A DNA stretch of 37,334 bases from an uncultured Acidimicrobiales bacterium (GTDB taxonomy: Bacteria; Actinomycetota; Acidimicrobiia; Acidimicrobiales; SZUA-35). Positions 2,497-37,334 of this stretch are shown one piece after another. Both the position numbers and the translations under genes were made by a program. Every line of letters begins with the position of its first letter. Position 1 is the stretch's first letter. The notes beneath the pieces are model-generated. The model was not told where the DNA came from. It worked only from the letters and a program-made list of their open reading frames with translations, and made no database searches. The stretch covers positions 1-37,334 of the forward strand of contig CALHBU010000248.1 in assembly GCA_937930655.1 (NCBI GenBank). The letters are read 5' to 3'.

Positions 2497-2575
2497 CCCC
2501 TAGTCTCCTCAGGGTGAGCTCAGGGTTGGTTAGGGGTCACACCTGATTCCGGGCCGCCGCTTGGTCATTGACACT
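2494..2575 (+). promoter_or_regulatory. Putative response-regulator operator array and leaderless promoter of the ABC exporter
   Basis: CTCAGGGT (2508), CTCAGGGT (2519) and TTAGGGGT (2530) at an 11-bp period, ACCTGA (2541-2546), 23 nt, GACACT (2570-2575), 6 nt, ATG (2582). Also a 9-bp inverted repeat TGACCCCTA (2494-2502) / TAGGGGTCA (2531-2539). Confidence 0.68.
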
Positions 2576-2581
2576 GGCGGC

Positions 2582-18764: not shown

Positions 18765-18862
18765 CAGCTGAGTGTGGCAGCACGCAACAAAGAACCATCT
18801 TTAGAGCGAACTATCCCCCCACCACTGAAAGTGTCCGCTACACTACCCAGCGGGCGGAGTTG

Positions 18863-21442
18863 GTGCCGATTGGAAGACCCGTGGCTCCAGCTCGTTTTTT
18901 GTCGTTTCCCGCCAGTCCGGCGTTTCTTCGTCGATTCAGCATGCTGCTGTTGTCGTCGACGTTGGTCCTGCTGCTGGCTGGTTCTGCGTTGGCGTCTATC
19001 GACAGCCCGCGCCCGATGATGGCCGAAAGTCTGGCCGGAAACGGATGGGAGCCTTCCGAACTTCCAGACGTTGCGGTCGTTGTCAGCACTGATGGCAACG
19101 GTGCCGGAAAGTCGGTTATCGGTGCCAATGAGACGCCTCGTACCCAGCGGCTTGCGGCCGAAGGTCTCGAACAATCGATCGTGCCCCAGCTTGGCCAACT
19201 CCCCGGTGTGCTATCGGTGACGGCTGAGGATGTTTCACCCGGCCGAGTCGCCCTGTTCATCTCTATCGACGACGCCAACCCTGATCTGACGCTCAAGCTG
19301 ATCGAGACCACCATCCAACGGGCAGCTCCCGAACTGGCAATCGCCGTCGGCGGTCGGGCAGTGGCTGATCGTGACCTCCTTGATCGGCTGAATCGAGGCA
19401 CGCTGGTTGCGGTTGTGCCCGTTCTTGTTCTTCTCACCATCCTCGCCGCCGCTTCGTTCGGACCCAGGTTCGGGCTCGGCACGGGTGCCGCAGTAAGTAC
19501 GGCCACCTTGCTCAGTGGCATCATCGGATCCCGCATGGTCGGCCCCTTCGACGGCTCACTGGGCTCCACTGCTCTGCCGGCGGTGCTGGTGAGCCTCCTG
19601 GTTGCCACTGTGCTCTGCTTCCGGCTTCTCGACTGGTTCAAACAACCCGAGGGTGACGATCAGGCCCAGATCATTCAGAACGCAGTCCGCCACCTTCTCC
19701 CTGAAGCTCTTCTTCTGTTTGCCGGGCTCGTTCTGACTGCTGTCGTTCTCGGTCTCGCTGGTCCCGGTCGAACACCGGCAACGGTGGTTGCAGTTGGTGC
19801 GTTCGTTGGCGCCCTCATTACCTTTGCTGTCCTCCCCGCCATTCTGGTGGCTTTGCCTCCGGTGCCCGACGAGGACGACTTCCGAATGTTCCGGCTCCAT
19901 GTGCCTGATGGCCGTGACTTTCCAACAGCAGTGCTGGCCGGTTTTGCGTTGTTTCTCCTGGCTATCGGCCTATTTGCGGTTCGAGTGCCGAGCTCGGAGC
20001 TCATGGACGAGTCCTCATTACCAGAGGGCGTCATGTCCCGAAGGGTCTCTGAACAATTGGCTGGACTCGGGGGCGACCCCACCAGCGCGGTGCTGGTGAC
20101 TGCCAACGCCGAGTCCTCCGACCGTGACCTGACGGCCTGGGCCCGTAGCGCCTCCCTTCTGCCCGGCGTCGGTTGGGTTGAAACGGCCGTTGGCCGGTAC
20201 ACGGCTGGAGAATTGGTGACCCCCGCTGCTTCTGGAGCCACCTTCCAATCCGACGACGGACAGCTCATCATCGTCACGCCCAACGTGACGGCACGATCGG
20301 CGGCTGCCCAGGCGCTGGTTGTTGACCTTGCTGCCATCGAGGCGCTCGAGGTTGAGCTCTCCGGAGCACCGGTCGATGCCCAACGAACCGCAAGCGATGC
20401 CCTCTCCCATTTGTGGTTGTTGGTGCTCTGCCTGGCCCTGGCCGGTGGAACCGCGGTGTACATCCTCACCAGCGATCTCCGCCTCGCAATGACCACGGTG
20501 CTCTTGAGGGTGCTCGGAACATCAGCCCTCCTAGGGGTGTACACGATGGTTTCGGGGTCAGCGAGCGCAGTCGAACTTCACGTGGCTGCACTCACCATGA
20601 GCGTCGGTGTTGGATTGTTCGAGCTCGGATTCATCCGCCGCCTGACCAGCCCAGCGGCACAAACCGAAACCGACATGATCAACGAGCTCCTCGAGCCATC
20701 GCCCCGCCCCGACCCGGTCGGCGCCGCCTTCCGGCAAGAAGGCCGGGCCGCCATGCTTGGTCTTGGCATCACGGCCTTGACCGGACTCGGCTTTCTGGCC
20801 AGCGATCTGGAGATGGCCCGACGGCTTGGAGTGGCCATTGCCGCCGGCGTAGTGATCGAGCTGCTGATCGGTATCTGGATGCTCCGACCGGTTCTCATGG
20901 GCCGGTTCGCTCCCGGCGCAACATCTGTCGCCCAACGCAGAAGCGCCCGTCTGGCGCTCAACACACTCGACGAAGAGGAGACCCTTGTGGTTAACGAAGA
21001 CGAATTGCTCGACCCGGCTTGGCGACGTGTGGTCGCTGGCCTTCTCCGGGCCGAGTTCGCCTTTCAGAACGATCCGACTAGTGCCGAGCTCACCACCGTG
21101 TTTGTCGAAGACACACCGGTCTTTGGTGAGCTTGCGGCGCACAACCGACGACTCAGGGAAGCGGGTTTCCGGGTCACTGGTCAGGGCCCGAGACTGTTGA
21201 AGGTTCGTGCCGTCAACAGTGGCTCACCGGTCACGTTGGCCATCACGGTGGACCACCCCGAACGGAAGCTGGTTGATCGAGACGGACGCCTCCTCGGCGT
21301 GCGGCGAGCTGAACGCCGCGACGGCATGCTTTGGTTGGTTCAGGACCCGTCCGGTCGTTACCGCATCGCCGAAGCCGTCGACCTCGGCACCGGAGACATC
21401 GAGACGGTCGTTGCGGAGACTCCTGTCCCGCTGAATGCCTGA
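18863..21442 (+). CDS. Degenerate MmpL/RND-like multi-pass membrane protein with a soluble C-terminal domain (start uncertain: 18863, 18881 or 18941)
   Basis: Two blocks of extracytoplasmic domain plus a TM bundle, with MmpL-like landmarks (AVGGRA..D, VLPAIL, LSGAPV, LLRPVLM-like). The track start at 18560 overlaps the divergent hydrolase and was rejected; GGAG precedes GTG 18863. Confidence 0.7.
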   Translation: MPIGRPVAPARFLSFPASPAFLRRFSMLLLSSTLVLLLAGSALASIDSPRPMMAESLAGNGWEPSELPDVAVVVSTDGNGAGKSVIGANETPRTQRLAAEGLEQSIVPQLGQLPGVLSVTAEDVSPGRVALFISIDDANPDLTLKLIETTIQRAAPELAIAVGGRAVADRDLLDRLNRGTLVAVVPVLVLLTILAAASFGPRFGLGTGAAVSTATLLSGIIGSRMVGPFDGSLGSTALPAVLVSLLVATVLCFRLLDWFKQPEGDDQAQIIQNAVRHLLPEALLLFAGLVLTAVVLGLAGPGRTPATVVAVGAFVGALITFAVLPAILVALPPVPDEDDFRMFRLHVPDGRDFPTAVLAGFALFLLAIGLFAVRVPSSELMDESSLPEGVMSRRVSEQLAGLGGDPTSAVLVTANAESSDRDLTAWARSASLLPGVGWVETAVGRYTAGELVTPAASGATFQSDDGQLIIVTPNVTARSAAAQALVVDLAAIEALEVELSGAPVDAQRTASDALSHLWLLVLCLALAGGTAVYILTSDLRLAMTTVLLRVLGTSALLGVYTMVSGSASAVELHVAALTMSVGVGLFELGFIRRLTSPAAQTETDMINELLEPSPRPDPVGAAFRQEGRAAMLGLGITALTGLGFLASDLEMARRLGVAIAAGVVIELLIGIWMLRPVLMGRFAPGATSVAQRRSARLALNTLDEEETLVVNEDELLDPAWRRVVAGLLRAEFAFQNDPTSAELTTVFVEDTPVFGELAAHNRRLREAGFRVTGQGPRLLKVRAVNSGSPVTLAITVDHPERKLVDRDGRLLGVRRAERRDGMLWLVQDPSGRYRIAEAVDLGTGDIETVVAETPVPLNA

Positions 21443-26395: not shown

Positions 26396-26422
26396 TCAGG
26401 TTTCGGGCCGGTTGGCCGATGG
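26396..26422 (+). promoter_or_regulatory. Putative sigma28 (FliA/WhiG)-type promoter of the GGDEF-EAL gene
   Basis: TCAG (26396-26399)-N15-GCCGATGG (26415-26422)-N6-GTG (26429). Confidence 0.6.
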
Positions 26423-26428
26423 AACGAA

Positions 26429-29020
26429 GTGCGTTACGCGGCTCTTACTCGTGTGCTACCCGGTTCTGTCTTACTTTTGGGCCTGTTGCTGACACTGATC
26501 GTCAGCACCAACGTGGCGGCCAGGAACGAGCGAGCCACTGCCCAGGCCAGGCAGGCCGCCAACACGGTGGTCCTGACCCATGCCAGAGCATCTGAGTCAG
26601 AGCTTCACAACGTTGCTGATGAAGTCGACCGACTGGCTCACTCCCTTCGGGTACTGACCGAGATCGGGGACATCGACATTGAGTCAGCCGTTACTGCTGA
26701 AGTCGACGCACAGCTGTCGCTCGAGCGGCGTTCAGCGATTCTTGCCGTCTTCGTTCAGTCGGGCGTCGATCAGGTCATGATTTTCAGCGACGATTCGATC
26801 GCAGGCAGAGACTTCCCGTTGGTGCCAGCCGGACTGGACTACATCGATGGCGGTATCTGGAACGGCTCGCTCTCGTACGGAATCGACACCAGCAGCCGGG
26901 CGGGCGCCGAGATCGTGATCTTGGTCGATCGAGATGCTCTGCAGGCGGCGATCCAACCATCTTTTGCTGACGGCTTCAGCGCCACCCTTTACGATCTTCC
27001 TGGGCAGGAATCGGGCAGCGAGACGGCAGTTCATGACGGTCTCGAGTCCATCGGCGGTGTTCTGTGGGACCGTCAAGCCGGGAGCGCCGTCTCGCGGCAG
27101 GACGCCGAAGTTCTCGGCCACTCAGTGTCGATCGAGGTAGAGGCCGCGAACGGTGCACTTTGGCTACCGTCGTCAGGGGTGGCGTGGAGCGTGCCGTTGT
27201 TTGGGACGCTGTTATCCCTGCTGGCTGCTGCTGCCGCCATGGTGACCGTCCGTGTTGTTTCCCGGGCCGAACTGGAGCGTGACGAGGCCGACCTCGCTCG
27301 CGATGCCGCTGCCGCGAGATTCCGGGCCAGCTTCGAGCGAGCGCCCATCGGCGTTATCGAGCTGGATGCCAACGGCACCATTGTCGCCGCCAACCCTCGT
27401 TTCGCCAGCCAACTTGGATTCGCAGCCGAAGAATTGCTCGAGACCGAGCTGCTGGATCTGGTCGACGGAGAGGATCGTCCCGAGGCTCAAGAGCTTCTTT
27501 GGGCCATGTTGGAGGGCGAAACTGATGGAGAGCAGACCGAACGTCGCTATCGGAACCGAAATGGGGGCGCCGTCTGGGTTCGAGAGTCCATGAGCGTTTT
27601 GGTCTCCGAAGACGGCTCCCACCATGTGCTGCTCCAGGCCGAGGACGTCAGCGACGAACGACGAGCAAGGGCCGAACTTCACCGCAAAGCGCTCTTTGAC
27701 GACCTCACCGGGCTTCCCAACCGTTCCAATCTCATTGCCAGGGTTAACCGGGCGCTCGACGCCGATCGGCCCGCCGACGATGTTCTGGCTCTGATGTTCG
27801 TAGATCTCGACAAGTTCAAGAACGTGAACGACACACTTGGCCATGAAGCTGGCGACATCCTGCTCATAGAGGTAGCTGAACGCCTCCGACGAGCGTGTCG
27901 AGCCACTGACACCGTCGCTCGTCTGGGCGGCGATGAGTTCGTGGTGCTGTGCGAGGGGCTACCCAACGACGAGGTCGCAAGCCAGACCGCAGAACGATTC
28001 GCAGAGACGCTACGCGAGCCGATGTTCATTCGCGATGTTGAGGTGCCGGTGAGCGCTTCCATTGGTCTTGTCGTTGAAAGCGGGGCCGCCAGCTCCAGCG
28101 ATCTTCTGCGCCAAGCTGATCAGGCCATGTATCGGGCCAAGACGTCGGGCCGGAATCAACTGATCCGCTTCGATATCGACGAGGGCACCCGACGTCGTAC
28201 CGACGAACCGGATACCGTCAGTGCCCACGATCTTCGGTCTGCTATAGACAACGGGCAGCTCCTAGTCCATTACCAACCGGTTGTTGATACCGGAACACTC
28301 GAGGTTGTTGGGTGCGATGCCTTTATTCGATGGGCCCACACCGAGCGAGGCCTTCTAACCGCCGGCGAGTTTCTTCCTGCCGTAGAGAAACACGGCATGG
28401 TCGAGGAACTCGACCGTTTGGCCCTGGCCGAGGGTGTTGCGACTCTGGCCGAGTGGGCCGAAGACGAGCGTTCGTCGTGGTACATGATCTTCAACCTTTC
28501 GCCGGTGAACTACGACAATCGAGAGTTCGCGGGCTCTGTTGCCACACTGATAGAGGAGGCAGGGGTTGACCCATCTCGAGTCATTCTCGAGCGGCACGAG
28601 ACCTCGTTCCTCACTCAAACTCCCACTGCTGTCATCGCCACACGGGAGCTCCGTTCACTTGGCGTGCGGATATCGCTCGATCACTTTGGCACCGGCTCGT
28701 CAACGCTGAACGAAATGTCGATGCTCGAGTTCGATGTTCTGAAGATCGACCGCTCGTTCGTTCGAGATTCCGGCCATCAGCAGACCTACGTTCTTGAGGC
28801 ACTCGGCAATATGGCTGACGCGCTCGACCTGAAGGTAATTGCCGAAGGGATCGAAACCGAGACCGAACTCCGGGTGGTCCAAAAAGCAGGACTGGCCTTC
28901 GCCCAGGGCTACCTCCTCGGCAAGCCGGTGAGTGAGGCTCAGTTCGTGGCCGGCGACTTTGGGAGAGCGGAGAGCGTTGCTGCTCTCAGCTCCTCGGAGC
29001 CGACAGGCTTGGTCAAGTAG
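26429..29020 (+). CDS. Membrane-anchored PAS-GGDEF-EAL protein (likely diguanylate cyclase with degenerate EAL)
   Basis: Two TM helices around an extracellular region, PAS/PAC (FRASFERAPIG...WVRES), DDLTGLPNR, DLDKFKNVNDTLGH.AGD, RATD-x5-GGDEF; EAL domain reading DAFIRW, LDHFGTG, LKIDRSF, AEGIET and QGY. Confidence 0.95.
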   Translation: MRYAALTRVLPGSVLLLGLLLTLIVSTNVAARNERATAQARQAANTVVLTHARASESELHNVADEVDRLAHSLRVLTEIGDIDIESAVTAEVDAQLSLERRSAILAVFVQSGVDQVMIFSDDSIAGRDFPLVPAGLDYIDGGIWNGSLSYGIDTSSRAGAEIVILVDRDALQAAIQPSFADGFSATLYDLPGQESGSETAVHDGLESIGGVLWDRQAGSAVSRQDAEVLGHSVSIEVEAANGALWLPSSGVAWSVPLFGTLLSLLAAAAAMVTVRVVSRAELERDEADLARDAAAARFRASFERAPIGVIELDANGTIVAANPRFASQLGFAAEELLETELLDLVDGEDRPEAQELLWAMLEGETDGEQTERRYRNRNGGAVWVRESMSVLVSEDGSHHVLLQAEDVSDERRARAELHRKALFDDLTGLPNRSNLIARVNRALDADRPADDVLALMFVDLDKFKNVNDTLGHEAGDILLIEVAERLRRACRATDTVARLGGDEFVVLCEGLPNDEVASQTAERFAETLREPMFIRDVEVPVSASIGLVVESGAASSSDLLRQADQAMYRAKTSGRNQLIRFDIDEGTRRRTDEPDTVSAHDLRSAIDNGQLLVHYQPVVDTGTLEVVGCDAFIRWAHTERGLLTAGEFLPAVEKHGMVEELDRLALAEGVATLAEWAEDERSSWYMIFNLSPVNYDNREFAGSVATLIEEAGVDPSRVILERHETSFLTQTPTAVIATRELRSLGVRISLDHFGTGSSTLNEMSMLEFDVLKIDRSFVRDSGHQQTYVLEALGNMADALDLKVIAEGIETETELRVVQKAGLAFAQGYLLGKPVSEAQFVAGDFGRAESVAALSSSEPTGLVK

Positions 29021-29331
29021 CCGTCCAACCCGTTCACCCGAGGATCGCCGAAGTCTTCTCGGCGGAGCTCGCCGGTGAGAAGGACGAAGGGTGGCCGCGA
29101 GGCGGGGAGTGCCTCGAGCAGGTCTAGGCCGCTTCCTCCCGGCATGATGTAGTCACACAGGATGAGCGCAAGCGCAGGTCGGTACATCGCCAGCGCAGCT
29201 TCAGCGGAGTCGGCTTCCTCAGTAGCGAAGCCTTGTTGCTGAAGCATGTGACATAGGACTAGCCGTGACACCGGGTCGTCATCAACGACCAGAACCGTGA
29301 TGTCGGCTTTTTCGACTCGGTCGCTCCCCAT
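28939..29331 (-). CDS. Single-domain response regulator receiver (CheY-like); start may be 29343 or 29346
   Basis: VLVVDDD, ILCDYIMPGGSG, LLTG and YLTKP all intact; its 3' end overlaps the convergent GGDEF-EAL gene. Confidence 0.9.
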   Translation of the reverse strand: MGSDRVEKADITVLVVDDDPVSRLVLCHMLQQQGFATEEADSAEAALAMYRPALALILCDYIMPGGSGLDLLEALPASRPPFVLLTGELRREDFGDPRVNGLDGYLTKPVGSEELRAATLSALPKSPATN

Positions 29332-29339
29332 TGCGCCGC

Positions 29340-29681
29340 TCACCACTGAGCGAGGAGGTCGTCCATGGATGTGGCGAAGGTGAAGACCTTGTCGAAGCTG
29401 GTGAGTTCGAGGATTCGCTTGGCGTCAGCCGACCGCGGCCAGACCAGACGAAGATCGCCTCCTGCTGCTCTGGCGTCCTTCATGCCCTTGACCAGAGCGG
29501 CCAGCCCGGCTGAGTCGAGAAACTCCAGTTCGCTGAGATCGATGGCGAGGTTCACCTGACCGTCCTGAAGATGGTCGTTGAACAGCTGCCGCAATTCGGT
29601 TGCCTCCAGGGCGTCAAGACGGCCTGACAAACGAATGGTCAGAATGTCGATCTCATGGCTTCCGGTGCGAACGTCCATCAT
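29340..29681 (-). CDS. STAS-domain anti-sigma factor antagonist (RsbV/SpoIIAA-like)
   Basis: LSGRLDA, IDLSELEFLDSAGLAALV (phospho-acceptor Ser), GGDLRL and ILELT.FDKVF. Confidence 0.93.
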   Translation of the reverse strand: MMDVRTGSHEIDILTIRLSGRLDALEATELRQLFNDHLQDGQVNLAIDLSELEFLDSAGLAALVKGMKDARAAGGDLRLVWPRSADAKRILELTSFDKVFTFATSMDDLLAQW

Positions 29682-29687
29682 GGTTGT

Positions 29688-29715
29688 TGATCGACCACGT
29701 TCAGCCGCTTCTTTA
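29688..29715 (-). promoter_or_regulatory. Putative sigma28-type leaderless promoter of the distal STAS gene
   Basis: TAAA (29715-29712)-N16-GTCGATCA (29695-29688)-N6-ATG (29681). Confidence 0.65.
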
Positions 29716-29718
29716 GCG

Positions 29719-30126
29719 CTAGTGGAACGCGGTTGAGTCGAGCGAAAACCGCAGCGTCCAACGGTTCTGATCATCCTGTCGGCGATAGTCGATTGCGGTG
29801 GCGATCTGCTCGATGATCATGAGCCCATACCCCCGCACCTGTGGTTCGGTCGGTGGAGAAACCTGGTCTGCCTCGAAGGGCAGACCGGAGTCGGTCATCA
29901 CCACAACGAGTTCGTCGCCATCGATATCGGCGCTGAGCTCTAGACCCGACGACTTGGCATGATCAATGCTGTTGTTGGCCAACTCGTGCACCGCCAGCTC
30001 AATTTGGCCCCGGACAGGTGCCGCCACCTCGTCCGGCAACGGGGCGAGACGTTCTGAGAGCCACGGCCCGATAGTCCGGAGTGCCAGGTGGTTCGATTCC
30101 AGAAGAAGGACGCTGGAGTCAGCCAT
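29719..30126 (-). CDS. RsbW/SpoIIAB-like anti-sigma factor serine kinase (HATPase_c_2)
   Basis: IELAVHELANNSIDHA, DSGLPF and RGYGLMIIEQI; overlaps the phosphatase stop. Confidence 0.9.
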   Translation of the reverse strand: MADSSVLLLESNHLALRTIGPWLSERLAPLPDEVAAPVRGQIELAVHELANNSIDHAKSSGLELSADIDGDELVVVMTDSGLPFEADQVSPPTEPQVRGYGLMIIEQIATAIDYRRQDDQNRWTLRFSLDSTAFH

Positions 30127-31339
30127 GAGCGTCAGTCTCCACTGCGGTCGCCCGGATGATCAGGAGTGTGCGGTCATCAGTTTGTTCAGCGGTGCCTGCG
30201 TAGGATTCGAGCCGCTCGAACACCAGACCACCGAGTTCGGTTGCGGGAAGATTCGAGTCGACGAGAAGATCAAGCATTCGTTGTTCGCCCCACATCTGAC
30301 CGGCAGGATCCTCTTGCTCAGTGAAGCCATCCGAACTTACGACGAGGCGGGAGCCAGGAGGTGCAGCTAACACTGTGTCCTCGACGGGACCAAGATCGGA
30401 CAGCGGGAGGACGCCGATCGGAGGAACGACCGAGTTTATGGAACGGGGGCCGCTGTCGTCGATGTAGAAGATCGGTCCATGACCGGCGCTGGCGATGGAG
30501 AGCTGTCGAGAACCGGCATCGTAGGAGCCCGCCATAAGCGTCACGAAGAGGCCGGCGTCGGCTAGGTACTTGTGCACCCAGTTGTCAATGGTCTCGAGAA
30601 CAGCGCCGGGACCTGCAGTGCCCGCTGACTGGAAGGCGGCCGTTGCTGCCGAGATCACCGTTGTCATCATCAACGCGGCCGGTAGTCCCTTTCCCGAGAC
30701 ATCTCCGGCAACGAAGTGCAGGACATCGTCCAGCACCGCGAAGGTGAAGAGATCGCCTCCCGCCGCTCGGGCCGGGTCAGAGCGGGCGAAGACGTCGACA
30801 CCGGGTAACTCCGGTCGCCAGGTCGGAAGCGCCAGCTGCGCAAGTTCCGATGCGGTGTCGTGATCCCGCCTGGCAACTGCGCCTTCCAGCGTCTCGTGAT
30901 GGTGGCGGGAGGTTTGTACTGCGCCCAACGCCATGCTGGCGATAGCGGTCAGCAGCTTGTGGTCGGCTGTGCCGAACGTTCGGTTGTCCCGGTGGGCATA
31001 GAGGCTACCGGTGAGCCTCCCGTTGCTCACCTCGACGCTGGTCCTGTTCGGTGCCCTGCCAACGGGTGCCCTGTCGTGGCTCTCGTCGTCGTGACGTCGC
31101 ATCAGTTGATCGGTCGAATGGACCTGGTCACCATCGACGCTGAAGGTCAGGAGGTCAGCGGCCAGGAGATCGCGGGCCTTTTCGAGGATGGCGGCAACGG
31201 CCTCCGACTCGTCCAGCGACTCGGTGGTGATCGAAGCCAACTGGTACAGCACCAGCAATTGCTCGTTGACCTCCACCAGTGCTGCTGTCAGCGACTGCAT
31301 CGGGTCGACATGCGTGGTCATGTCTGACAGTTGGCTCAC
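30119..31339 (-). CDS. SpoIIE/RsbU-type PP2C phosphatase with a GAF-like N-terminal region
   Basis: AGGDLF, GDVSGKGLPAAL, FVTL, SAGH, SDGFTE and DDRT; GTGA coupling with the upstream STAS gene. Confidence 0.93.
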   Translation of the reverse strand: MSQLSDMTTHVDPMQSLTAALVEVNEQLLVLYQLASITTESLDESEAVAAILEKARDLLAADLLTFSVDGDQVHSTDQLMRRHDDESHDRAPVGRAPNRTSVEVSNGRLTGSLYAHRDNRTFGTADHKLLTAIASMALGAVQTSRHHHETLEGAVARRDHDTASELAQLALPTWRPELPGVDVFARSDPARAAGGDLFTFAVLDDVLHFVAGDVSGKGLPAALMMTTVISAATAAFQSAGTAGPGAVLETIDNWVHKYLADAGLFVTLMAGSYDAGSRQLSIASAGHGPIFYIDDSGPRSINSVVPPIGVLPLSDLGPVEDTVLAAPPGSRLVVSSDGFTEQEDPAGQMWGEQRMLDLLVDSNLPATELGGLVFERLESYAGTAEQTDDRTLLIIRATAVETDAHG

Positions 31340-31704
31340 TCGATGGTGAAGGCGAGATCGAGCCTTGTTAGCTCGAGAATCACTCGAACCGGGTCAGAAG
31401 GAGAGACCAGGATGAGGTCACCGTCTCGTTCCCGACAGTGCTTCATTCCTCTGACCAGTTCGGCCAGGGCCGTCGAATCGATGAATTCAACCTCGGCGAG
31501 AGAGACCAAGACCCGGGTGGCCGCGCCGCTGCCCGATCCGTCGAGGATCTGGCCCAGGATGGCTCGGAAGGTGTCTACTTCATGGGCGTCGAAGCGTCCG
31601 GCGAGCCGCAGTTCTACGGCATGGCTGGCGGTTGACTGCTCGGATGGAAGTGGGAGTTGCGTGATGTCCACCGGATGACCTCGGATCGACTGCGGGGTAT
31701 TCAC
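31336..31704 (-). CDS. Second STAS-domain anti-sigma factor antagonist
   Basis: LAGRFDA, VSLAEVEFIDSTALAELV, DGDLIL and VILELTRLD. Confidence 0.92.
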   Translation of the reverse strand: MNTPQSIRGHPVDITQLPLPSEQSTASHAVELRLAGRFDAHEVDTFRAILGQILDGSGSGAATRVLVSLAEVEFIDSTALAELVRGMKHCRERDGDLILVSPSDPVRVILELTRLDLAFTIE

Positions 31705-31709
31705 GTGTC

Positions 31710-31736
31710 CAGTCGGCAGCTACGGTCGCGTGTTGA
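31710..31736 (-). promoter_or_regulatory. Putative sigma28-type leaderless promoter of the STAS-PP2C-RsbW unit
   Basis: TCAA (31736-31733)-N15-GCCGACTG (31717-31710)-N5-GTG (31704). Confidence 0.6.
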
Positions 31737-31746
31737 AGTAGATCGC

Positions 31747-32547
31747 TCAGCGCTGGTCGATGCGAGGGTGATTGTCCGACCCATATCGACCTCGTAGATC
31801 GTTCCAACGAATGATGGCCAGATCCCGCAGGAACTCAACTGCCACCTTGCCAGCATCGACCTTGGACCCCGGTGCATCTATCCAGGTGACGGGTACCTCG
31901 GTCGTCCGGAATCCGAATTTTCGGGCCAGGTACAGGATCTCCAAGTCGAAGGAGAATTCATCGATCACCTGCCGCCTGAACAGACGCTCAGCAGCGTCGG
32001 CGGTGAACATTTTGAAACCACACTGGGTGTCGGAAACCGGCAGTCGGAACAGGCCCTTGACCAACAAACTGAGTCCACCACTGAACACTTTGCGGGACAG
32101 AGATTTGTTGGCAACGTCGGCCCCGTCGGCGGCTCGGGAGCCGACAACAACGTCGTAGCCGTTTTCCAGTTCGGCTACCAGCGCCTCGAACTGTTCGATG
32201 GGCGTTGACTGATCAGCGTCGGCGAAGAGGATGACCGAGCCTCGGGCCTGGAGCACGCCTCGCCGGACTGCGCTGCCCTTGCCGCCGTTCTGTTCGGCCA
32301 GCAGCAGGCGGAGGTTGACCAGCTCCAGATCTCTAACCAGTTCAGCGGTTGTATCGGTCGAGCCATCGTCGGCCACGATCAGTTCCCACGGCTCGCCCAG
32401 CGAACTCATATGAGTGGCAATGGCGCCGATGGTCGGAACGATCCGCCATTCTTCGTTGTATGCCGGTATGACAACCGAATAGAGGGGCTCAACCTCGAGC
32501 GGGACCTCGGCCCACACTCGGTAGGCGTCCAGGGTTCTGTTGGTCAT
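31747..32547 (-). CDS. GT2 polyprenyl/dolichyl-phosphate glycosyltransferase-like protein
   Basis: SVVIPAYNE, DDGSTD, NGGKGSAVRRG, FADAD, GSR, DTQCGFKMF, FSFDLEIL and EVPV.W. Confidence 0.93.
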   Translation of the reverse strand: MTNRTLDAYRVWAEVPLEVEPLYSVVIPAYNEEWRIVPTIGAIATHMSSLGEPWELIVADDGSTDTTAELVRDLELVNLRLLLAEQNGGKGSAVRRGVLQARGSVILFADADQSTPIEQFEALVAELENGYDVVVGSRAADGADVANKSLSRKVFSGGLSLLVKGLFRLPVSDTQCGFKMFTADAAERLFRRQVIDEFSFDLEILYLARKFGFRTTEVPVTWIDAPGSKVDAGKVAVEFLRDLAIIRWNDLRGRYGSDNHPRIDQR

Positions 32548-33887
32548 GTCTGTTCTCCCGGAGTGTGGGTGAGATGGCTGCCCGCAACCGCGGCGAGAAG
32601 CAACGCCATAGCGATCACTTGCATGCGAATGAGATCATCGGTCGCATTGCGGCCGAAGAAGAGCAGGACGGTCTGGAACACGCCACCGGCTAGCAACACC
32701 AGGGCTTCTCGAATCCGGCCTGTTGACAGGTGGTGGCTGACGATCAGGTTGGCCATAGCGAACATGGCAGTAGCAAAGGCGTACCAGGCGAGCGGACTCG
32801 AAACACCGGCAAACTCCGGCCCGAAGACTCGTCCGAGCACGGTGCCGCCCAGGAAATAGGCCCCACCGACGAAGCATGCTCCCATGACCGCCACAACAGC
32901 CAGGCCGCTGTGGAGAAGGCCATCGGTGCTCTCGCCTCGTTCTTTTCGCTGGGCGGCCGCAGGGAACAACGTGGTGGCCACCGACCATGAAAGAAAGAAG
33001 ACCGCCCGGCCAACGAGCGCAATAGCCGCGTAGACACCAGCCGTCTCGGGTTCGAGGAAGCGTTTGGCCATCAGCACGTCGCCGTTGTTGATGATGATTT
33101 GGCCCAACAGCAGAAGAGCAACCGGGAGGGTGTACGAAACGAGCTCGGCTTTGGCGTCGGCTGACATGGTGGGCTTTGGATCCCCACTCCGAGGGCGAAG
33201 CACACCTGTTCTTCTCATTCGGCTGGTAATGAGTTGCACGTGGCCCCACGTGACGATGAACGACGCGGTCAAACCGATGGTCGCTCCGATAACACCGAAG
33301 CCGGCGGCGACCAGGCCGATGCCAAGGGCAACCCGAGCCACCATCTCGACCACGAATGTCCAGGCCAATGGTTGGAACCGCAGCAGCCCCTGGAGGACTC
33401 CGCGGCCCACCGCCTGGGCTAGGTAGAACGGCATACCGAAGCCGAGAATGGCGAACGGCCACGCCGACGCAGAGTTGAAGAACTCGCTCCACCATTGAGA
33501 GCCGAGCATCAAGGCGGCCGCAACCGCGGTGCCGGCAAGGATTGCCATTCGCTGCAGTTTCTGCGCCAGCGCGACCGTGGCCGACGGATCGTTGTTGACC
33601 GCATTGATTCCCGCGAAACGGGCCGCCATCAACTGAAGACTGATAGCGATAGCGGTGACCAACAGCATGATGGTGACCATCAGGTTGGCGTCGGCGAACT
33701 CAGCAGGCGTCAGCCATCGACCAAGAAAAACGTTGAGGAGGTAGTTGCCGGCGTTGGCGACAAGCATCGCCAACCCGAGCGCAGCACCACCCGAGACCAA
33801 CGCCTTGCTATCGCCTCCCGCCGGTGAGTCGCTGGCGGCGGCCGCTTGCTGGCTCGGCCTCGAGCGGGTCCGTAGATCCGTCGTCAT
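32544..33887 (-). CDS. Wzx/MOP-type oligosaccharide flippase family protein
   Basis: About 12 TM helices with ANAGNYLLNVFLGRWLTPAEFAD, RGVLQG, NGDVLMAKRF, AGVYAAIALVGR and LFP. ATG 33887 lies 4 nt after the GT4 stop. Confidence 0.88.
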   Translation of the reverse strand: MTTDLRTRSRPSQQAAAASDSPAGGDSKALVSGGAALGLAMLVANAGNYLLNVFLGRWLTPAEFADANLMVTIMLLVTAIAISLQLMAARFAGINAVNNDPSATVALAQKLQRMAILAGTAVAAALMLGSQWWSEFFNSASAWPFAILGFGMPFYLAQAVGRGVLQGLLRFQPLAWTFVVEMVARVALGIGLVAAGFGVIGATIGLTASFIVTWGHVQLITSRMRRTGVLRPRSGDPKPTMSADAKAELVSYTLPVALLLLGQIIINNGDVLMAKRFLEPETAGVYAAIALVGRAVFFLSWSVATTLFPAAAQRKERGESTDGLLHSGLAVVAVMGACFVGGAYFLGGTVLGRVFGPEFAGVSSPLAWYAFATAMFAMANLIVSHHLSTGRIREALVLLAGGVFQTVLLFFGRNATDDLIRMQVIAMALLLAAVAGSHLTHTPGEQT

Positions 33888-33891
33888 CGAT

Positions 33892-35097
33892 TCACGAGTC
33901 AGACGACAGTCGCCCGAGGTGCATGAGATGCCAATCAATCACTTCGGCCATTGGAATCCCGGTTGCTGCCAGATAGTTACGCTCGCCATGTTCAGCATTG
34001 AGGGTGGGGTCGTCCAGAAGTTTGGCGAGCGCATCGGCCAGGCTCATTGCGCTACCCGGTTCGAAATACTGTCCGATGAACCCTTCTTCCTCGATCACCT
34101 CGACGAAGTCTCCAATTGCCGGGAGCACAGCACTCCGGCCATAGGAACCAGCCTGATGAAGCACGCCCGAACTGCCGGTTGTTGACGTGTAGGGGAAGGC
34201 GGTGACCGTGGCGTTTCCGAACAAGCCGGGAACATCGTCTTCCTCCACGTAGCCGGTGAAGGTGACGTTGTCCATGTCCTGACAGCCTTCTTCGACCGAC
34301 GCTAGGTACCCCTTTGAATTGGGGCTATCAGTTCCGGCGATCACCAATTCAAGATCGGTGTAGCCCCGGCCGGCGAGCTCTCTAACGGCATCGACCAGCA
34401 CATCGACCGTCTTGTAGGTGCCCCACTTACCGAAGGCGAGAATCTGCCGTGGCCCCTCGTCGGGCGGTCCGAACTGGGGCTCGTCGATTTCTTCAAAACT
34501 GCCGTGTGGGGCCAGCAGCGCATTCTCGGCTCCGTAGCTCGACCGGAGAAACTCGACGTAGCGGGGAATGGTCAGCGCCACATAGTCGGTCTTGAGAATG
34601 GCGCGGGTGAGTGCCCGACCGGCGAGTTCCATCCCTTTCGCCACCAGCTTTGAGTCGGCGAATCCCGCATCTTGCATGTCGACGTTGTCGGCCAGGTTAT
34701 GAAGAATCACGGCCGTCGTGACGCCGGCTCGTTTGAGCAGGGCCGGAATCAGGAGGCCAAGGCCACCGGCAACTTTGCTGTCCCCAAAAGTGGCGAACTG
34801 AAGATTTACCAACACCGCATCGACATTGGCCTTCTTGACTGCTCGGACCAGACGAAACGGATTGGTCAGTGCGTTGAACTCCCACGAAACCACCGCGTCG
34901 ACCTTGGCGGCAGCCGTGGGGTCAGCCAAGGTGATCGGTGGGCCGGCATCGGTCTCATCGGCAAAGACGACCACGCTGTCGACCGATTGGTTGGAAGCCA
35001 AATGGTTGACCAGGTGGAAGCCGAACTCGTTCAGGCTGTTTCGGCCCGGAGGAAAGGCGGTGATGACGCCGATCCGACGTGGTGTAGCTCTGTTCAT
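33892..35097 (-). CDS. GT4 (GT-B fold) glycosyltransferase
   Basis: GVITAFPP, APHG, ILAFGKWGTYK, LVIAG, FTGYVEE, FPY...GSSGVLHQA and SLADAL. Confidence 0.92.
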   Translation of the reverse strand: MNRATPRRIGVITAFPPGRNSLNEFGFHLVNHLASNQSVDSVVVFADETDAGPPITLADPTAAAKVDAVVSWEFNALTNPFRLVRAVKKANVDAVLVNLQFATFGDSKVAGGLGLLIPALLKRAGVTTAVILHNLADNVDMQDAGFADSKLVAKGMELAGRALTRAILKTDYVALTIPRYVEFLRSSYGAENALLAPHGSFEEIDEPQFGPPDEGPRQILAFGKWGTYKTVDVLVDAVRELAGRGYTDLELVIAGTDSPNSKGYLASVEEGCQDMDNVTFTGYVEEDDVPGLFGNATVTAFPYTSTTGSSGVLHQAGSYGRSAVLPAIGDFVEVIEEEGFIGQYFEPGSAMSLADALAKLLDDPTLNAEHGERNYLAATGIPMAEVIDWHLMHLGRLSSDS

Positions 35098-35150
35098 TGT
35101 TCTCTGTTCCGACGTCTTGTGCGCCAGCCGTTGTCGACCCGCTGCTAGAG

Positions 35151-35178
35151 GTGTCGGCAGGTCTTGCTACCTGCTTGA
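35151..35178 (-). promoter_or_regulatory. Putative sigma28-type promoter of the GT4-flippase-GT2 unit, with a palindrome in the spacer
   Basis: TCAA (35178-35175)-N16-GCCGACAC (35158-35151); GCAGGT-N6-ACCTGC at 35157-35174. Confidence 0.6.
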
Positions 35179-35207
35179 ACAGTGATCTCTGACGAACAGC
35201 CGAAGGG

Positions 35208-36104
35208 TCACCGGTTGGTTGGTAGGACGAGGGTCGCAACGGTGTGCCCACAGCCGTCGTTGGTGATGGTGAGCCTGCCATCGAGTGCCTCGGCCAGTTG
35301 TTGGCACAAACCGAGGCCCAGTCCGAGGCCTTCAGAAATTCGAGCCGCACTTGCATCAAGCATGGTGAAGTCGTCAAACAAGCCTTCGATGCGGTCGGCA
35401 TCGATGCCGGGTCCGGCATCGGTTATCTCAAGCCGCAGTTCCTCCCCCGAGATTGAGATGTCGAGGTTCACCGTTCCTCGATCGCCGTGGGTCACCGCGT
35501 TGTCGAGCAACTCATCCAGAATCTGAAGAACGCGACGTTCATCGAGGTTCACGACCCGTGCCTCATGAGAGGAGCTCACCGCCAGCAGATGACCGGTACG
35601 CATGGCCGTCAGTTGCCACCGTTTGCGAATCGAATCGGCGAGCTCACCTAGCTCGACAGGCTCAAGCTCTGGCGTGACATTGCCACTACCGAGTTCTACT
35701 AAATCGAGGAGGCGGGTGAGTAGTTGTCGGAGCCGGTCAGCTGAACGTGTAGCTGTCGCCAGATAGTCGGCAGCCTGCGTCCCTTCGACATGGGGTGTGA
35801 GAAGTTCCAGCATGCCGAGAAGTCCATTGAGGGGGGTGCGGGTTTCGTGACTCAAGGTCGACAGAAAACGTTCTCGGCTGCTGGAGGCGACGGCTAACTC
35901 TCGAAGCGTTTGTTCAAGGTCGGCGGTGCGTTCAGCTACCCGTCGATCGAGCTCCTGATTCACCAGCCACAGTTCCCTCATTCCGCGGTCGGCGATCTCT
36001 TCGGCCTCCCGCCGGGCCCTCCGTTCGCGTTCAAGCCGCCGCTCCAAGCGAGCGATGCTACGGGCAGCGTCGGCTGCTTGATCAGGGCTCTCGGTACTGG
36101 TCAT
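35208..36104 (-). CDS. Soluble H-NOX-associated histidine kinase (coiled coil-HisKA-HATPase)
   Basis: N-terminal RLERRLERERRARREAEEIA coiled coil, H-box FLSTLSHETRTPLNG, N-box ELLDNAVTH, DAGPGI, LFDDF and GLGLGL; no TM segment; starts 7 nt after the H-NOX stop. Confidence 0.93.
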   Translation of the reverse strand: MTSTESPDQAADAARSIARLERRLERERRARREAEEIADRGMRELWLVNQELDRRVAERTADLEQTLRELAVASSSRERFLSTLSHETRTPLNGLLGMLELLTPHVEGTQAADYLATATRSADRLRQLLTRLLDLVELGSGNVTPELEPVELGELADSIRKRWQLTAMRTGHLLAVSSSHEARVVNLDERRVLQILDELLDNAVTHGDRGTVNLDISISGEELRLEITDAGPGIDADRIEGLFDDFTMLDASAARISEGLGLGLGLCQQLAEALDGRLTITNDGCGHTVATLVLPTNR

Positions 36105-36111
36105 GCCATCG

Positions 36112-36660
36112 CTAGTCAGCGATCGCCATTTTCACGGCTCGTACGTCGAAGACGGTGATCTCCTCACCATGGCCGCTCACGATGCGTACGTCGACGTCCT
36201 CGCCGAAACGCTGGCCGGCACCGAGGATGAGGCCTTCGGCCAGGACTCCGAGCCGTCGACTCGATCGATAGGTGATTCTGAGTACATCGTCTGGCCGATC
36301 TTCGAATTCGAACTCCGGTGGCTTGGCATCGGGGTGAAGCTTTAGAACCTCGGGATGAATGATGTCGTTGACTCGTCGGAGGAAGTCGTGAGTGCCAGCA
36401 GCTTCGTCCACCAGTTCGGGGTACCGGTCGGCCAGATGGGGAAAGGCATGTTGGCCGAGGGTCCGCACCAGTTCGTCAGGCCCAAGCCCTGTCATGGGGC
36501 AGGCAGCACCGACCAGGGCTGTCAGGTCGGAATCCGGATAGCTGCCCAAGGAGGTGTAGTGGCCGTCGATCTCGGCGGCCTCCAAGAGGTCGTCCCACAC
36601 ATCCTCTGAGTACAAACCAACGACTGCTTCTTCAACTGCGTTGAAAATGACGCCCTTCAT
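36112..36660 (-). CDS. hnoX: H-NOX (heme nitric oxide/oxygen-binding) sensor protein
   Basis: Start MKGVIF after an AAGGAG RBS; YTSLGSYPD; proximal His in NDIIHPEV with Pro 13 residues later; YxSxR motif YRSSR; GLILG. Confidence 0.95.
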   Translation of the reverse strand: MKGVIFNAVEEAVVGLYSEDVWDDLLEAAEIDGHYTSLGSYPDSDLTALVGAACPMTGLGPDELVRTLGQHAFPHLADRYPELVDEAAGTHDFLRRVNDIIHPEVLKLHPDAKPPEFEFEDRPDDVLRITYRSSRRLGVLAEGLILGAGQRFGEDVDVRIVSGHGEEITVFDVRAVKMAIAD

Positions 36661-36713
36661 TCTGACTCCTTGGATGCTGGGACCAGCACGGTGGTGGCCT
36701 TGTGTCGGTGTTC

Positions 36714-36741
36714 CTGTCGGCTGTTCATTGATTGTCTGTGA
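36714..36741 (-). promoter_or_regulatory. Putative sigma28-type promoter of the hnoX-kinase unit
   Basis: TCAC (36741-36738)-N16-GCCGACAG (36721-36714), 53 nt before ATG 36660; the -35 element lies in the 3' end of the upstream gene. Confidence 0.45.
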
Positions 36742-37334
36742 GTAGACGCTCACGGCGGTCAGTCAGGCTGGTAGCGGCCGAGTCGGCCATGACGTCCAAT
36801 TCAGCGGCCAGAGTCTGGAGTTCGCCAGGATCTGCAGTCGTGGTCCGACTAGCCATCTCAAGGGCGGCACAGTTCTGAGCGAGATCGGTTGCTCCCAGCA
36901 TCAATGCCGTTGATTTGAGTGTGTGGGCCGAGCGGGAGATGGTCACGTGGTCGTCGTCGCCAAGAGCCTCGTGGATGACGGTTCGGTGCCGGGTGAGCTC
37001 GTCGAGGAACGTGCTGATCACCGTTGCGACCACCGACCGGTCGCCCAGGTCGGCTACCAGTTGATCGATGGTCGCATCGTTTATCGACCCCGTGCTCTCG
37101 GCGCCGGATGGCTCAGATCCCCACTTGCTGATCATGTCGCCGAGATCGGTCAGAGAAATAGGTTTGGCCAGATAGTCGTTCATGCCGGCGTCGAGGCAGG
37201 CCTCCCGGTCGCCGGAGGTAGCGCTGGCGGTCGTGGCGATGATCACCATCGGGTTGTCTCCGGTCTCGTTGCGCCTGATACGGCGGGTGGTTTCGAGACC
37301 GTCTATGCCCGGCATGTGCCAGTCCATCAACACC
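36725..37334 (-). CDS. C-terminal receiver + Hpt part of a probable hybrid histidine kinase (5' end outside the window)
   Basis: LMDWHMPGIDG, TTASA, CLDAGMNDYLAKP and Hpt motif AHTLKSTALMLGA. Confidence 0.92.
   Translation of the reverse strand, partial: VLMDWHMPGIDGLETTRRIRRNETGDNPMVIIATTASATSGDREACLDAGMNDYLAKPISLTDLGDMISKWGSEPSGAESTGSINDATIDQLVADLGDRSVVATVISTFLDELTRHRTVIHEALGDDDHVTISRSAHTLKSTALMLGATDLAQNCAALEMASRTTTADPGELQTLAAELDVMADSAATSLTDRRERLLTDNQ

Follow-up and report, generated by a model that had tools for sequence, protein, structure and literature searches.

An H-NOX phosphorelay locus with partner-switch and glycan genes in Acidimicrobiales, and a related glycan cassette in other phyla

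Results

The genes of the locus

The contig CALHBU010000248.1 of an uncultured Acidimicrobiales bacterium (assembly GCA_937930655.1) carries at one end a run of genes predicted to encode an H-NOX haem sensor, a phosphorelay, a partner switch and enzymes of lipid-linked glycan synthesis. The stretch analysed here, 37,334 nucleotides (nt) long and called the window below, is this whole contig (C248), one of 464 in a metagenome-assembled genome (MAG) with a completeness of 81%. Eleven minus-strand open reading frames (ORFs) lie back to back at 28939-37334, and each of their Pfam domains scores above the curated cut-off (Table 1). In the order of transcription, they encode a partial receiver (REC) with a histidine phosphotransfer (Hpt) domain, H-NOX, a kinase with HisKA and HATPase_c, a glycosyltransferase of family GT4, a Wzx-type flippase, a GT2 glycosyltransferase, a STAS protein (STAS_b), a PP2C phosphatase, an RsbW-like protein, a second STAS protein (STAS_a) and a stand-alone REC protein. 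A preliminary description of the sequence had given the same domains in the same order and had placed the lipid-linked glycosylation genes inside the signalling genes; indeed, GT4, Wzx and GT2 sit between the kinases and the partner switch. It had also seen the operon converge on a PAS-GGDEF-EAL gene, and the 3' ends of this gene and the REC gene overlap by 82 nt (28939-29020). Its guess of an actinobacterial host agrees with our assignment to the Acidimicrobiales, as the best 18 of 53 H-NOX loci (59-83% identity), drawn from one genome per GTDB species, are all in Acidimicrobiales MAGs. The GC content across the window is 59-64%.

The gene junctions are mostly tight, with overlaps or gaps of at most 64 nt, except for a gap of 110 nt between the kinase and GT4. 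A simple consensus scan found no sigma-70-like promoter (2.0 expected), and a simple scan for terminator-like sites gave no excess (9 found, 7.6 expected). The public runs listed for window positions 29000-37334 are two DNA runs of one marine-metagenome study, which match 0.96 and 0.66 of the words sampled from the stretch and may include the sample of origin; no RNA run is listed.

Table 1. Genes of the locus, in the window and on the abutting contig C382
Feature	Position	Strand	Basis and remarks
Hybrid histidine kinase, 3' end (partial REC + Hpt)	36725-37334	-	Pfam Response_reg, Hpt; cut by contig end
H-NOX haem sensor (HNOB)	ORF 36112-36753, likely gene 36112-36660	-	Pfam
Small histidine kinase (HisKA + HATPase_c)	35208-36104	-	Pfam
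GT4 (Glycos_transf_1/Glyco_trans_1_4)	33892-35097	-	Pfam
Wzx-type flippase (Polysacc_synt_3/Polysacc_synt)	32544-33938	-	Pfam
GT2 (Glycos_transf_2)	31747-32547	-	Pfam
STAS_b	31336-31704	-	Pfam STAS
PP2C (SpoIIE)	30119-31339	-	Pfam SpoIIE, residues 205-397
RsbW-like (HATPase_c_2)	29719-30126	-	Pfam, 55.2 bits
STAS_a	29340-29774	-	Pfam STAS; start most likely near 29678, from ortholog alignment
Stand-alone REC, last operon gene	28939-29346	-	Pfam Response_reg
PAS-GGDEF-EAL gene	26429-29020	+	Pfam; convergent with REC gene
GT-C glycosyltransferase, membrane protein (predicted)	L055:1277-4534 (C382)	divergent from hybrid kinase	1085-1196 amino acids
Ig-like lipoprotein	C382	divergent operon	about 415 amino acids; lipobox LAGC; weak Big_1/Invasin_D3 matches
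GH5-like hydrolase	C382	divergent operon	about 515-576 amino acids; N-terminal anchor; GH5 'Cellulase' match in orthologs

H-NOX and the two kinases

The H-NOX protein matches Pfam HNOB (PF07700) with 125.8 bits against a cut-off of 25.5, over profile positions 1-162 of 163, and aligns end to end with the solved H-NOX proteins 6ocv, 2kii and 4u9b. The first residue of these proteins aligns with residue 32 of the long ORF, which makes the ATG at 36660 the most likely start and gives a protein of 182 amino acids (aa). The proximal histidine is kept, with H133 of protein P0001 (long-ORF numbering) aligned to the histidine in the 'D(V/F)IH' helix of the Shewanella and Vibrio proteins, and the YxSxR motif is kept as YRSSR, aligned with YSSPR/YQSKR. 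We take these to be the haem-ligand and haem-propionate residues.

The small kinase (298 aa) begins 7 nt downstream of H-NOX and consists of a coiled coil, HisKA and HATPase_c, with neither a sensor domain nor a transmembrane (TM) segment; its translation keeps the H-box SHETRTP, the N-box and the G-boxes. It follows H-NOX in 17/17 close relatives whose contig extends to the kinase (of the 18 loci L002-L019) and in 6/6 rearranged loci of the class Acidimicrobiia, and it is only partly matched in two more distant loci (L056 and L061). By its adjacency and domains, the small kinase is presumed to be the H-NOX partner, of the HnoK/HahK type.

The gene upstream of H-NOX had been described as a REC-Hpt gene. 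Both domains are present, and full-length orthologs reveal that the gene is the truncated C-terminus of a PAS-HisKA-HATPase-REC-Hpt hybrid kinase, which measures 646 aa in the relative L004. The window holds its last 202 residues, with about 70 residues of REC (Response_reg profile positions 46-110) and the Hpt domain, and these keep the REC acceptor Asp (DWHMP) and the Hpt His (HTLKS). The first 399 aa, with PAS, HisKA and HATPase, lie at L055:3-1199 on the minus strand of contig C382 (our locus L055) of the same genome. Since the halves of the hybrid kinase lie on C248 and C382, the two contigs abut, with about 45 codons missing between them.

A divergent operon beyond the window

On C382, outside the window, three genes run divergently from the hybrid kinase and are kept in 15-17 close relatives as well as in the window's own genome. 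They encode a large membrane protein, an Ig-like lipoprotein with a Ser/Thr/Pro-rich N-terminus and a GH5-like hydrolase, for which the GH5 'Cellulase' profile of Pfam exceeds its cut-off of 23.5 in two orthologs (27.7 bits in L009, 29.8 bits in L056). These three genes, which lie past the edge of the window, had been missed in the preliminary description.

No sequence match of the large membrane protein in Pfam, NCBIfam or the PDB passed the threshold, and the best E value of a PDB profile search was 0.14. Below threshold, Pfam finds PMT_2 in 8/17 orthologs (best E 5.3e-6), PTPS_related in 6/17 and a weak EpsG match (E 0.0023) in 1/17. An exhaustive search placed 755 cluster representatives in the family at E<=1e-3. 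We modelled residues 1-620 with AlphaFold2 from a 91-sequence alignment and obtained a predicted local distance difference test (pLDDT) score of 94.3 and a predicted TM-score (pTM) of 0.93. The 44 best Foldseek matches of this model in the PDB are all GT-C enzymes, with a probability of 0.99-1.00 and TM-scores up to 0.52, including AglB, STT3, ArnT (TM-score 0.52), AftA, AftD, PglB, DPY19, EmbA/B/C, Pmt4 and ALG3/9/12. By this model, the large C382 membrane protein is predicted to be a multi-pass protein of the GT-C fold. GT-C enzymes use polyprenyl-phosphate-linked donors outside the membrane. At least 90% of the 91 family members share D49, an Asp of the first outer loop that closely follows TM1; by analogy with other GT-C enzymes, we take it to be the candidate catalytic acidic residue.

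A first model of the whole 1085 aa, made from 17 close orthologs, reached a pLDDT of 56 with a mixture of STT3 and beta-sandwich matches in Foldseek, and was replaced by the one above. In that weak first model, the C-terminal third (residues about 700-1085) is predicted to form beta-sandwich domains, with block pLDDT mostly 60-87; its Foldseek matches are transglutaminase and beta-galactosidase Ig-like domains, next to a weak FxLYD match. About half of the GT-C family, proteins of about 550-600 aa, is without this beta-sandwich part.

The spacer between the GT-C and hybrid-kinase genes (L055:1199-1277, with equivalents in L002-L018) is unalignable except for two conserved copies of the motif CCGATWGGA, one for each divergent gene, in the sense of that gene and just upstream of its start. 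Near-copies of the form CCGAC[AT]GGA occur on the minus strand at 29774-29782, 31708-31716 and 36712-36720, before STAS_a, STAS_b and H-NOX. The motif is not enriched across the window (20 matches, 16.7 expected); it could be a ribosome-binding context or a regulator site.

Glycan and partner-switch genes in the window

GT4 belongs to a GT-B fold family, is soluble with no TM segment, and is 73-82% identical in the close relatives. The flippase is of the Wzx type in the MOP family (Polysacc_synt_3 43.0 bits against 23, Polysacc_synt 39.6 against 28.2) and has at least seven hydrophobic segments. GT2 carries the DDGSTD and DAD motifs and has no TM segment, and its best NCBIfam matches, all below cut-off, are to polyprenyl-phosphate sugar synthases.

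The window encodes, side by side, the domains typical of a partner switch: two single-domain STAS proteins with a conserved Ser, HATPase_c_2 and SpoIIE/PP2C. The Ser of 'DSAGL' in STAS_a and the Ser of 'DSTAL' in STAS_b both align with the Ser of the SpoIIAA FMDSSG motif, presumably the phospho-acceptor. This residue is kept in 16/16 true orthologs of STAS_a, after the rows of L008, L037 and L041 were dropped for bad coordinates and one mis-assigned STAS_b row was set aside, and in 19/19 orthologs of STAS_b. The PP2C motifs GGD, DVSGKG, SDG and DD, which form the metal site, are invariant in 14 orthologs, and the protein matches the PDB sequences of SiaA (6k4e) and Rv1364c (3ke6); its N-terminal 190 aa or so are possibly GAF-like, according to a single Atlas lead with a score of 0.90. 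In the RsbW-like protein, which resembles SpoIIAB and would be a Ser kinase or an anti-sigma-type protein, the N-box HELANNSIDHA and GYGL are conserved among orthologs, and in the stand-alone REC protein, the DD pair, the acceptor D65, T91 and K113 are invariant in 16/16 orthologs. A complex prediction for PP2C with the stand-alone REC, run without controls, gave scores of 0.00 and 0.00 and counts neither way.

When longer proteins were searched for STAS_b fusions, two matches came up in all. P0159, a single member sequence in which a C-terminal fragment of GT4 is joined to STAS through a garbled middle, is probably an artefact of a gene call that ran over neighbouring genes; P0160 joins STAS to SpoIIE. 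Neither is taken as Rosetta-stone evidence.

Conservation within the Acidimicrobiales

The window proteins were compared by tblastn with the 53 loci found in the H-NOX protein search. Among the 18 close relatives, 14 carry all eleven genes collinear, and the other four, cut by contig ends, are collinear as far as they are present. Six more Acidimicrobiia loci, with H-NOX identities of 47-54%, keep the genes in other orders; for example, L021, L037 and L046 run GT4-GT2-STAS-PP2C-RsbW-STAS-(REC)-(hybrid kinase or free REC-Hpt)-H-NOX-kinase, with Wzx 5 kb away. The remaining patterns among the 53 include 23 loci, mostly alphaproteobacterial, where H-NOX is paired with a GGDEF-EAL gene, and six with H-NOX and kinases only.

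In all, these genes are found grouped in six or more orders besides that of the window (L021/L046, L037, L050; L059, L061, L063, L064, L065/66, L068). The arrangements vary between GTDB families, from co-directional (L059) to convergent (L060) to 44 kb apart (L065/L066), and in L061, L063 and L064 the glycan genes have moved between the GT-C operon and the kinases. The co-occurrence of signalling and glycosylation genes in related genomes, on which the preliminary description had made its proposal depend, therefore holds in every close relative and through the rearrangements. An order census of an even sample of 401 genomes, whose counts are inflated by relatedness among the genomes, found H-NOX in 30 and the GT-C gene in 20, with H-NOX also present in 18 of these 20; in 14 genomes they lie on one contig, no more than 45 kb apart. 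Because the association has survived many rearrangements, we consider the signalling and glycan genes to be functionally linked.

Some loci hold further genes among these. In the rearranged clade of L046 (11434-15796), the H-NOX kinase is separated from Wzx by four ORFs without a Pfam match and a polysaccharide pyruvyl transferase. In the genome G189 (L068:4123-7910), a 430-aa protein without a Pfam match and an 832-aa fusion of Acyl_transf_3 with a beta-lactamase fold stand between the partner-switch REC and GT-C, and these two may form a module for O-acyl modification of the glycan.

The cassette in other lineages

When species genomes were scanned with the GT-C alignment, at least 597 of them had a relative. 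For the best 80 of these at least 597 loci, the neighbourhood up to 10 kb on each side was searched by tblastn with the window proteins, and the counts that follow are lower bounds because many loci are cut by contig ends. By record title, the 80 comprise 27 Acidimicrobiia, 11 other Actinomycetota (Actinoplanes, Cryobacterium, Microbacterium, Mycobacteriaceae), 27 Chloroflexota (including Herpetosiphon geysericola DSM 7119), 5 Deinococcota, 7 Alphaproteobacteria (Litorimonas, Hellea, Algimonas), 2 labelled Bacteroidota and 1 unlabelled. The neighbours of GT-C are GH5-like in 65 loci, the Ig-like lipoprotein in 57, GT4 in 50, a hybrid-kinase-like protein in 50, GT2 in 49, Wzx in 48, any STAS in 37, PP2C in 31, the RsbW-like protein in 25, REC in 21 and H-NOX in 20.

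STAS stands together with GT2 or GT4 at 36/80 loci, namely 12/27 in Acidimicrobiia, 8/11 in other Actinomycetota, 11/27 in Chloroflexota, 4/5 in Deinococcota, 0/7 in Alphaproteobacteria and the unlabelled L122 (1/1). The distribution of H-NOX is different: 19 of its 20 positive loci are in Acidimicrobiia, and the twentieth is the Anaerolineae locus L090, where the H-NOX is 35% identical. To judge from gene content, the glycan genes and the partner switch are a cassette of Acidimicrobiia, other Actinomycetota, Chloroflexota and Deinococcota, to which H-NOX is a lineage-restricted added input. The preliminary description was thus right that the genes belong together, and it missed both this cassette of several phyla and the place of H-NOX as an addition to it.

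Actinoplanes rectilineatus offers a view of another input. Its genes run GT4-Wzx-GT2-STAS-PP2C-RsbW-STAS-REC, followed at some remove by GT-C-Ig-GH5-hybrid kinase-small kinase-GAF protein, and at L082:16184-20215 the hybrid kinase (HisKA-HATPase-REC-Hpt), a small kinase and a stand-alone GAF protein stand together with no H-NOX. The trio in Acidimicrobiales runs hybrid kinase, H-NOX, small kinase; in Actinoplanes the order of sensor and small kinase is reversed. This suggests that the stand-alone sensors are interchangeable and that H-NOX is a swappable input to the small kinase. We read the hybrid kinase and the partner switch as the cassette's own regulators, and the small kinase with its detachable sensor as an add-on input.

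Other genes in the window

At 605-6225 on the plus strand, a PspC-domain histidine kinase, a LuxR-type response regulator, an ABC ATPase and a 950-aa FtsX-type permease stand in a row, which looks like an envelope-stress or peptide-export module. Two further plus-strand ORFs have no Pfam match, one of 248 aa (9306-10052) and one of 960 aa (18560-21442); the coding strand of the latter is ambiguous because it overlaps three minus-strand ORFs of 194-289 aa.

Discussion

In our reading, the eleven genes make up the regulatory and cytoplasmic side of a conserved cassette that builds a glycan. We propose that a gas-modulated phosphorelay sets a partner switch, which in turn gates the synthesis of the glycan, and we give this reading a probability of about 0.55. 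The gene content, the catalytic and phospho-site residues, the GT-C fold, the conservation and the co-occurrence are its ground, from which we infer the protein-protein steps, which gas is bound, which way the control runs and what kind of glycan is made.

The proposed pathway has two arms. First, in the glycan arm, GT2 would load a sugar onto polyprenyl phosphate, and GT4 would build or extend a lipid-linked primer on the cytoplasmic face of the membrane. PimA and PimB act in primer synthesis, a role that a cytoplasmic GT4 could play. Wzx would then flip the lipid-linked sugar, GT-C would add it, outside the membrane, to an acceptor or to a polymer that is being extended, and the GH5-like enzyme would trim the product. 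Second, in the control arm, which would be wholly cytoplasmic, H-NOX would bind a diatomic gas, most likely nitric oxide (NO), and modulate the adjacent small kinase, which has no sensor of its own. The small kinase and the PAS hybrid kinase would pass phosphate through the REC and Hpt domains of the hybrid kinase to the stand-alone REC, and the state of this REC would shift the balance between PP2C and the RsbW-like kinase. That balance would set the Ser phosphorylation of both STAS proteins, and a STAS protein without phosphate would switch its partner, most likely through direct, post-translational gating of GT2, GT4 or Wzx.

Several points count against this proposal. Co-transcription of the eleven genes is inferred from their spacing. 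The cluster has two kinases, either of which may be the target of H-NOX, and each kinase may use either REC. The second Gly of the G1 box is absent from the RsbW-like protein in all orthologs, so its kinase activity is not certain. The top NCBIfam matches of GT2 (ArnC at 65 bits against 529, PgfS, AglJ, a Dol-P-hexose transferase and PpgS) all fall far below cut-off. Of the parts of a Wzx/Wzy-dependent polysaccharide pathway, Pfam finds the flippase, and neither the window nor C382 gave a match for a Wzy polymerase, a chain-length regulator or an initiating phosphoglycosyl transferase. Finally, H-NOX is dispensable for the cassette, because most carriers outside the Acidimicrobiia are without it within 10 kb on either side, and in the census two GT-C carriers, G034 (with the gene on a short contig) and G189, are without a detectable one; in G189, the hybrid kinase still accompanies the cassette, and H-NOX and the small kinase are missing.

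Within the proposal, the claim that STAS gates the glycan enzymes directly is put, from the sequences, a little short of an even chance. We favour it because the Pfam-annotated loci hold no sigma factor gene, a STAS gene adjoins GT2, GT4 or Wzx, and two precedents exist. By Pfam, a sigma factor gene is absent from the 37-kb window, from L004 and from L046; the rest of the genome was not searched. In most arrangements STAS_b adjoins GT2, GT4 or Wzx, and a STAS gene stands beside GT4 and Wzx even at L061 and L063, where tblastn gave no PP2C or RsbW. The precedents are the STAS domain of Anabaena, which directly controls a sugar transferase (PMC13555669), and SypE of Vibrio fischeri, which acts post-transcriptionally (PMC12369376).

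The serious rival is a classical partner switch, a further point against direct gating. A switch of this kind frees a sigma factor. Here, the RsbW-like protein would hold a sigma factor encoded elsewhere, and unphosphorylated STAS would free it for transcription of the glycan genes. Indeed, STAS with HATPase_c_2 and SpoIIE is the canonical module of the sigma-B/sigma-F type, NCBIfam TIGR00377 ('anti-sigma factor antagonist') scores above cut-off for both STAS_a and STAS_b, and the CCGATWGGA motifs before both divergent operons could mark a common regulation. Set against the three reasons given for direct gating, this must be taken seriously and is on balance unlikely.

Equally unlikely, in our view, is that the pathway glycosylates proteins. 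GT2 would then make a polyprenyl-phosphate sugar with which GT-C modifies the Ig-like lipoprotein or secreted proteins, as in the actinobacterial Ppm1/Pmt pair. The sub-threshold PMT_2 matches of the GT-C orthologs fit this idea, as do the oligosaccharyl- and protein-mannosyl-transferases among the structural matches, and the Ser/Thr/Pro-rich lipoprotein is the neighbour of GT-C in the majority of the best 80 loci. The lipoprotein gene is absent, however, from 5/5 Deinococcota and 7/7 alphaproteobacterial loci, which argues against the lipoprotein as an obligatory acceptor, while the GH5-like gene is kept more widely. A glycoside hydrolase together with GT4 and Wzx fits a polymer better, and the pyruvyl transferase of the L046 clade and the acyltransferase of L068 also point to a polymer.

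Our proposal takes the diatomic gas at the haem to be most likely NO. It is somewhat less probable again than the two preceding alternatives that H-NOX senses O2, CO or the redox state, or acts without haem. Some H-NOX proteins bind O2, and marine Acidimicrobiales are presumably aerobes. The nearest solved relatives by sequence, however, are NO sensors of the Vibrio/Shewanella type, the proximal His and YxSxR are both kept, and the residue nine past the YxSxR Tyr is Leu and not a distal Tyr, which we take to be needed for O2 binding in the Thermoanaerobacter H-NOX. A haem-free redox mode that uses Cys and zinc is described for the V. cholerae H-NOX (PMC8738867); the 3-Cys zinc site is absent here, because the protein has a single Cys.

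The preliminary description counted cyclic di-GMP (c-di-GMP) as a part of the system, and on that view c-di-GMP, made or degraded by the neighbouring PAS-GGDEF-EAL protein, would be built into the H-NOX circuit as its output or input. The gene is convergent with the operon and overlaps its 3' end, the pairing of H-NOX with a GGDEF-EAL gene is usual elsewhere (the 23/53 loci above), and at L056:18493-19674, on the minus strand of a one-contig Acidimicrobiales genome (G086), a REC-EAL gene adjoins the triad of hybrid kinase, H-NOX and small kinase, the only distant relative in which this is so. There, the triad directly follows the GT-C-Ig-GH5 operon, with no GT4, Wzx, GT2 or partner switch nearby. 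Against this, a GGDEF/EAL gene flanks the cluster in 0/18 close relatives, and conservation does not extend past the REC gene. This part of the description therefore fell away. The protein itself has its own periplasmic and PAS sensor domains, with about 230 aa of periplasmic sequence between two TM segments; it keeps an intact GGDEF motif, and its EAL signature reads DAF. H-NOX in general often goes with c-di-GMP, but c-di-GMP is not a conserved part of this system, and a place for it in the circuit is improbable.

That the signalling and glycosylation genes are chance neighbours without a functional relation, as an insertion of the glycosyltransferase genes between two signalling blocks might look, is hardly credible, since it is contradicted by the collinearity in 18/18 close relatives and by the retention of these genes in at least six rearranged orders and several phyla.

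If the proposal is true, a Gram-positive lineage would have an NO-responsive envelope glycan and, with it, the first H-NOX pathway of this kind known beyond the Gram-negative bacteria, to which the H-NOX signalling worked out so far is confined. The locus would be a compact circuit, with its sensor, relay, switch and output enzymes all encoded together. More broadly, and as a tentative suggestion, the cassette may consist of genes for an extracytoplasmic glycan or lipoglycan, a partner switch that gates the enzymes with no sigma factor, and a small kinase that takes interchangeable sensors, H-NOX in Acidimicrobiales and GAF in Actinoplanes. The carriers of the cassette with its sigma-less switch include cultured strains of Actinoplanes (A. 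rectilineatus NRRL B-16090), Microbacterium (M. aquimaris KCTC 19124), Cryobacterium and Herpetosiphon (H. geysericola DSM 7119), whose version is without H-NOX. There is a real chance that it represents a widespread and uncharacterised regulated glycan pathway. Acidimicrobiales are abundant marine bacteria, and a gas-controlled envelope glycan could bear on aggregation or particle attachment.

Relation to known systems

A literature search found no description of a locus or cassette with H-NOX, a partner switch and glycosyltransferases, most subscription journals and supplements being outside its scope; within that scope, it agrees with the preliminary description, whose author knew of no characterised actinobacterial example. 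Parts of the locus do have counterparts. ArnC/ArnT, Ppm1/Pmt, the mycobacterial PIM/LM/LAM pathway and Emb/Aft combine a GT2 donor synthase, a flippase and an enzyme of the GT-C fold; the GT2 found here may be such a synthase, and the GT-C model matches ArnT, AftA/D, Emb and Pmt4 in structure. The present locus differs from these systems in that its GT-C belongs to an unnamed family, its flippase is of the Wzx type, and a dedicated partner switch is present. In Pseudomonas aeruginosa, HptB-HsbR-HsbA and SiaABCD combine an Hpt-to-REC relay, a PP2C/kinase pair and a STAS-like protein with an output other than a sigma factor, and the PP2C domain found here matches SiaA by sequence. The HsbR domains are fused, the outputs are FlgM or diguanylate cyclases, and the operon is not known to hold glycan genes, all of which differ from the arrangement here.

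The proteobacterial H-NOX systems of Shewanella, Vibrio, Legionella and Paracoccus share the gene pair, as H-NOX lies beside a sensor-less histidine kinase, and relays through hybrid kinases and Hpt also occur (PMC8738867). Their outputs, as given there, are c-di-GMP enzymes or quorum-sensing regulators, whereas a partner switch and glycan genes take that place here. The same 2022 review shows H-NOX homologs in Acidimicrobiaceae in a sequence network, and it states that an NO-sensing H-NOX is yet to be reported from Gram-positive species.

Two systems come closest to the proposed circuit as a whole, the Syp polysaccharide of V. fischeri and a module of Anabaena. For the first, the analogy drawn in the preliminary description is apt. 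SypA is a STAS protein, and SypE combines RsbW, REC and PP2C domains. According to PMC12369376, NO acting through HnoX inhibits HahK, whose signal reaches SypG and SypE by way of the hybrid kinase SypF (and LuxU), with SypE controlling the polysaccharide at the post-transcriptional level. The likeness, which on our side is drawn from genes, thus extends from H-NOX beside its kinase through the Hpt of a hybrid kinase, a receiver, RsbW-like and PP2C domains and STAS to a surface polysaccharide. In contrast to V. fischeri, all the parts lie here in one operon with the glycan genes, there are two STAS proteins, and the domains fused in SypE are three separate proteins. A SypG-type sigma-54 activator is absent, the glycan machinery is GT2, GT4, Wzx, GT-C and GH5 and not the 18-gene syp locus of the Wza/Wzc type, and the host is a marine actinobacterium of a Gram-positive lineage. 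The likeness is one of shared domains.

For the second system, PMC13555669 describes how, in Anabaena PCC 7120, the REC-PP2C protein HenR and the RsbW-type kinase Alr3423 set the phosphorylation of Ser74 in the STAS domain of All4160. In All4160, STAS is fused to a sugar transferase, and phosphorylation switches the enzyme directly, with no sigma factor involved. This demonstration of direct partner-switch control of a polysaccharide enzyme dates from 2026, and STAS-transferase fusions are said there to be rare outside cyanobacteria. Both systems have a REC-controlled SpoIIE phosphatase, an RsbW-type kinase, a STAS Ser and a polysaccharide enzyme as the target, if our proposal holds. They differ in that the Anabaena STAS is fused to an initiating 'Bacterial sugar transferase' and its REC to PP2C, while in the Acidimicrobiales these domains are separate and no such transferase is present. 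The split form, in turn, is found in at least four other phyla, which suggests that direct partner-switch control of polysaccharide enzymes is widespread. Taken together, the locus works like the Vibrio Syp system and the Anabaena module and is a member of neither, because its domains are split, its glycan machinery is built on an unnamed GT-C family, and its host belongs to a different lineage.

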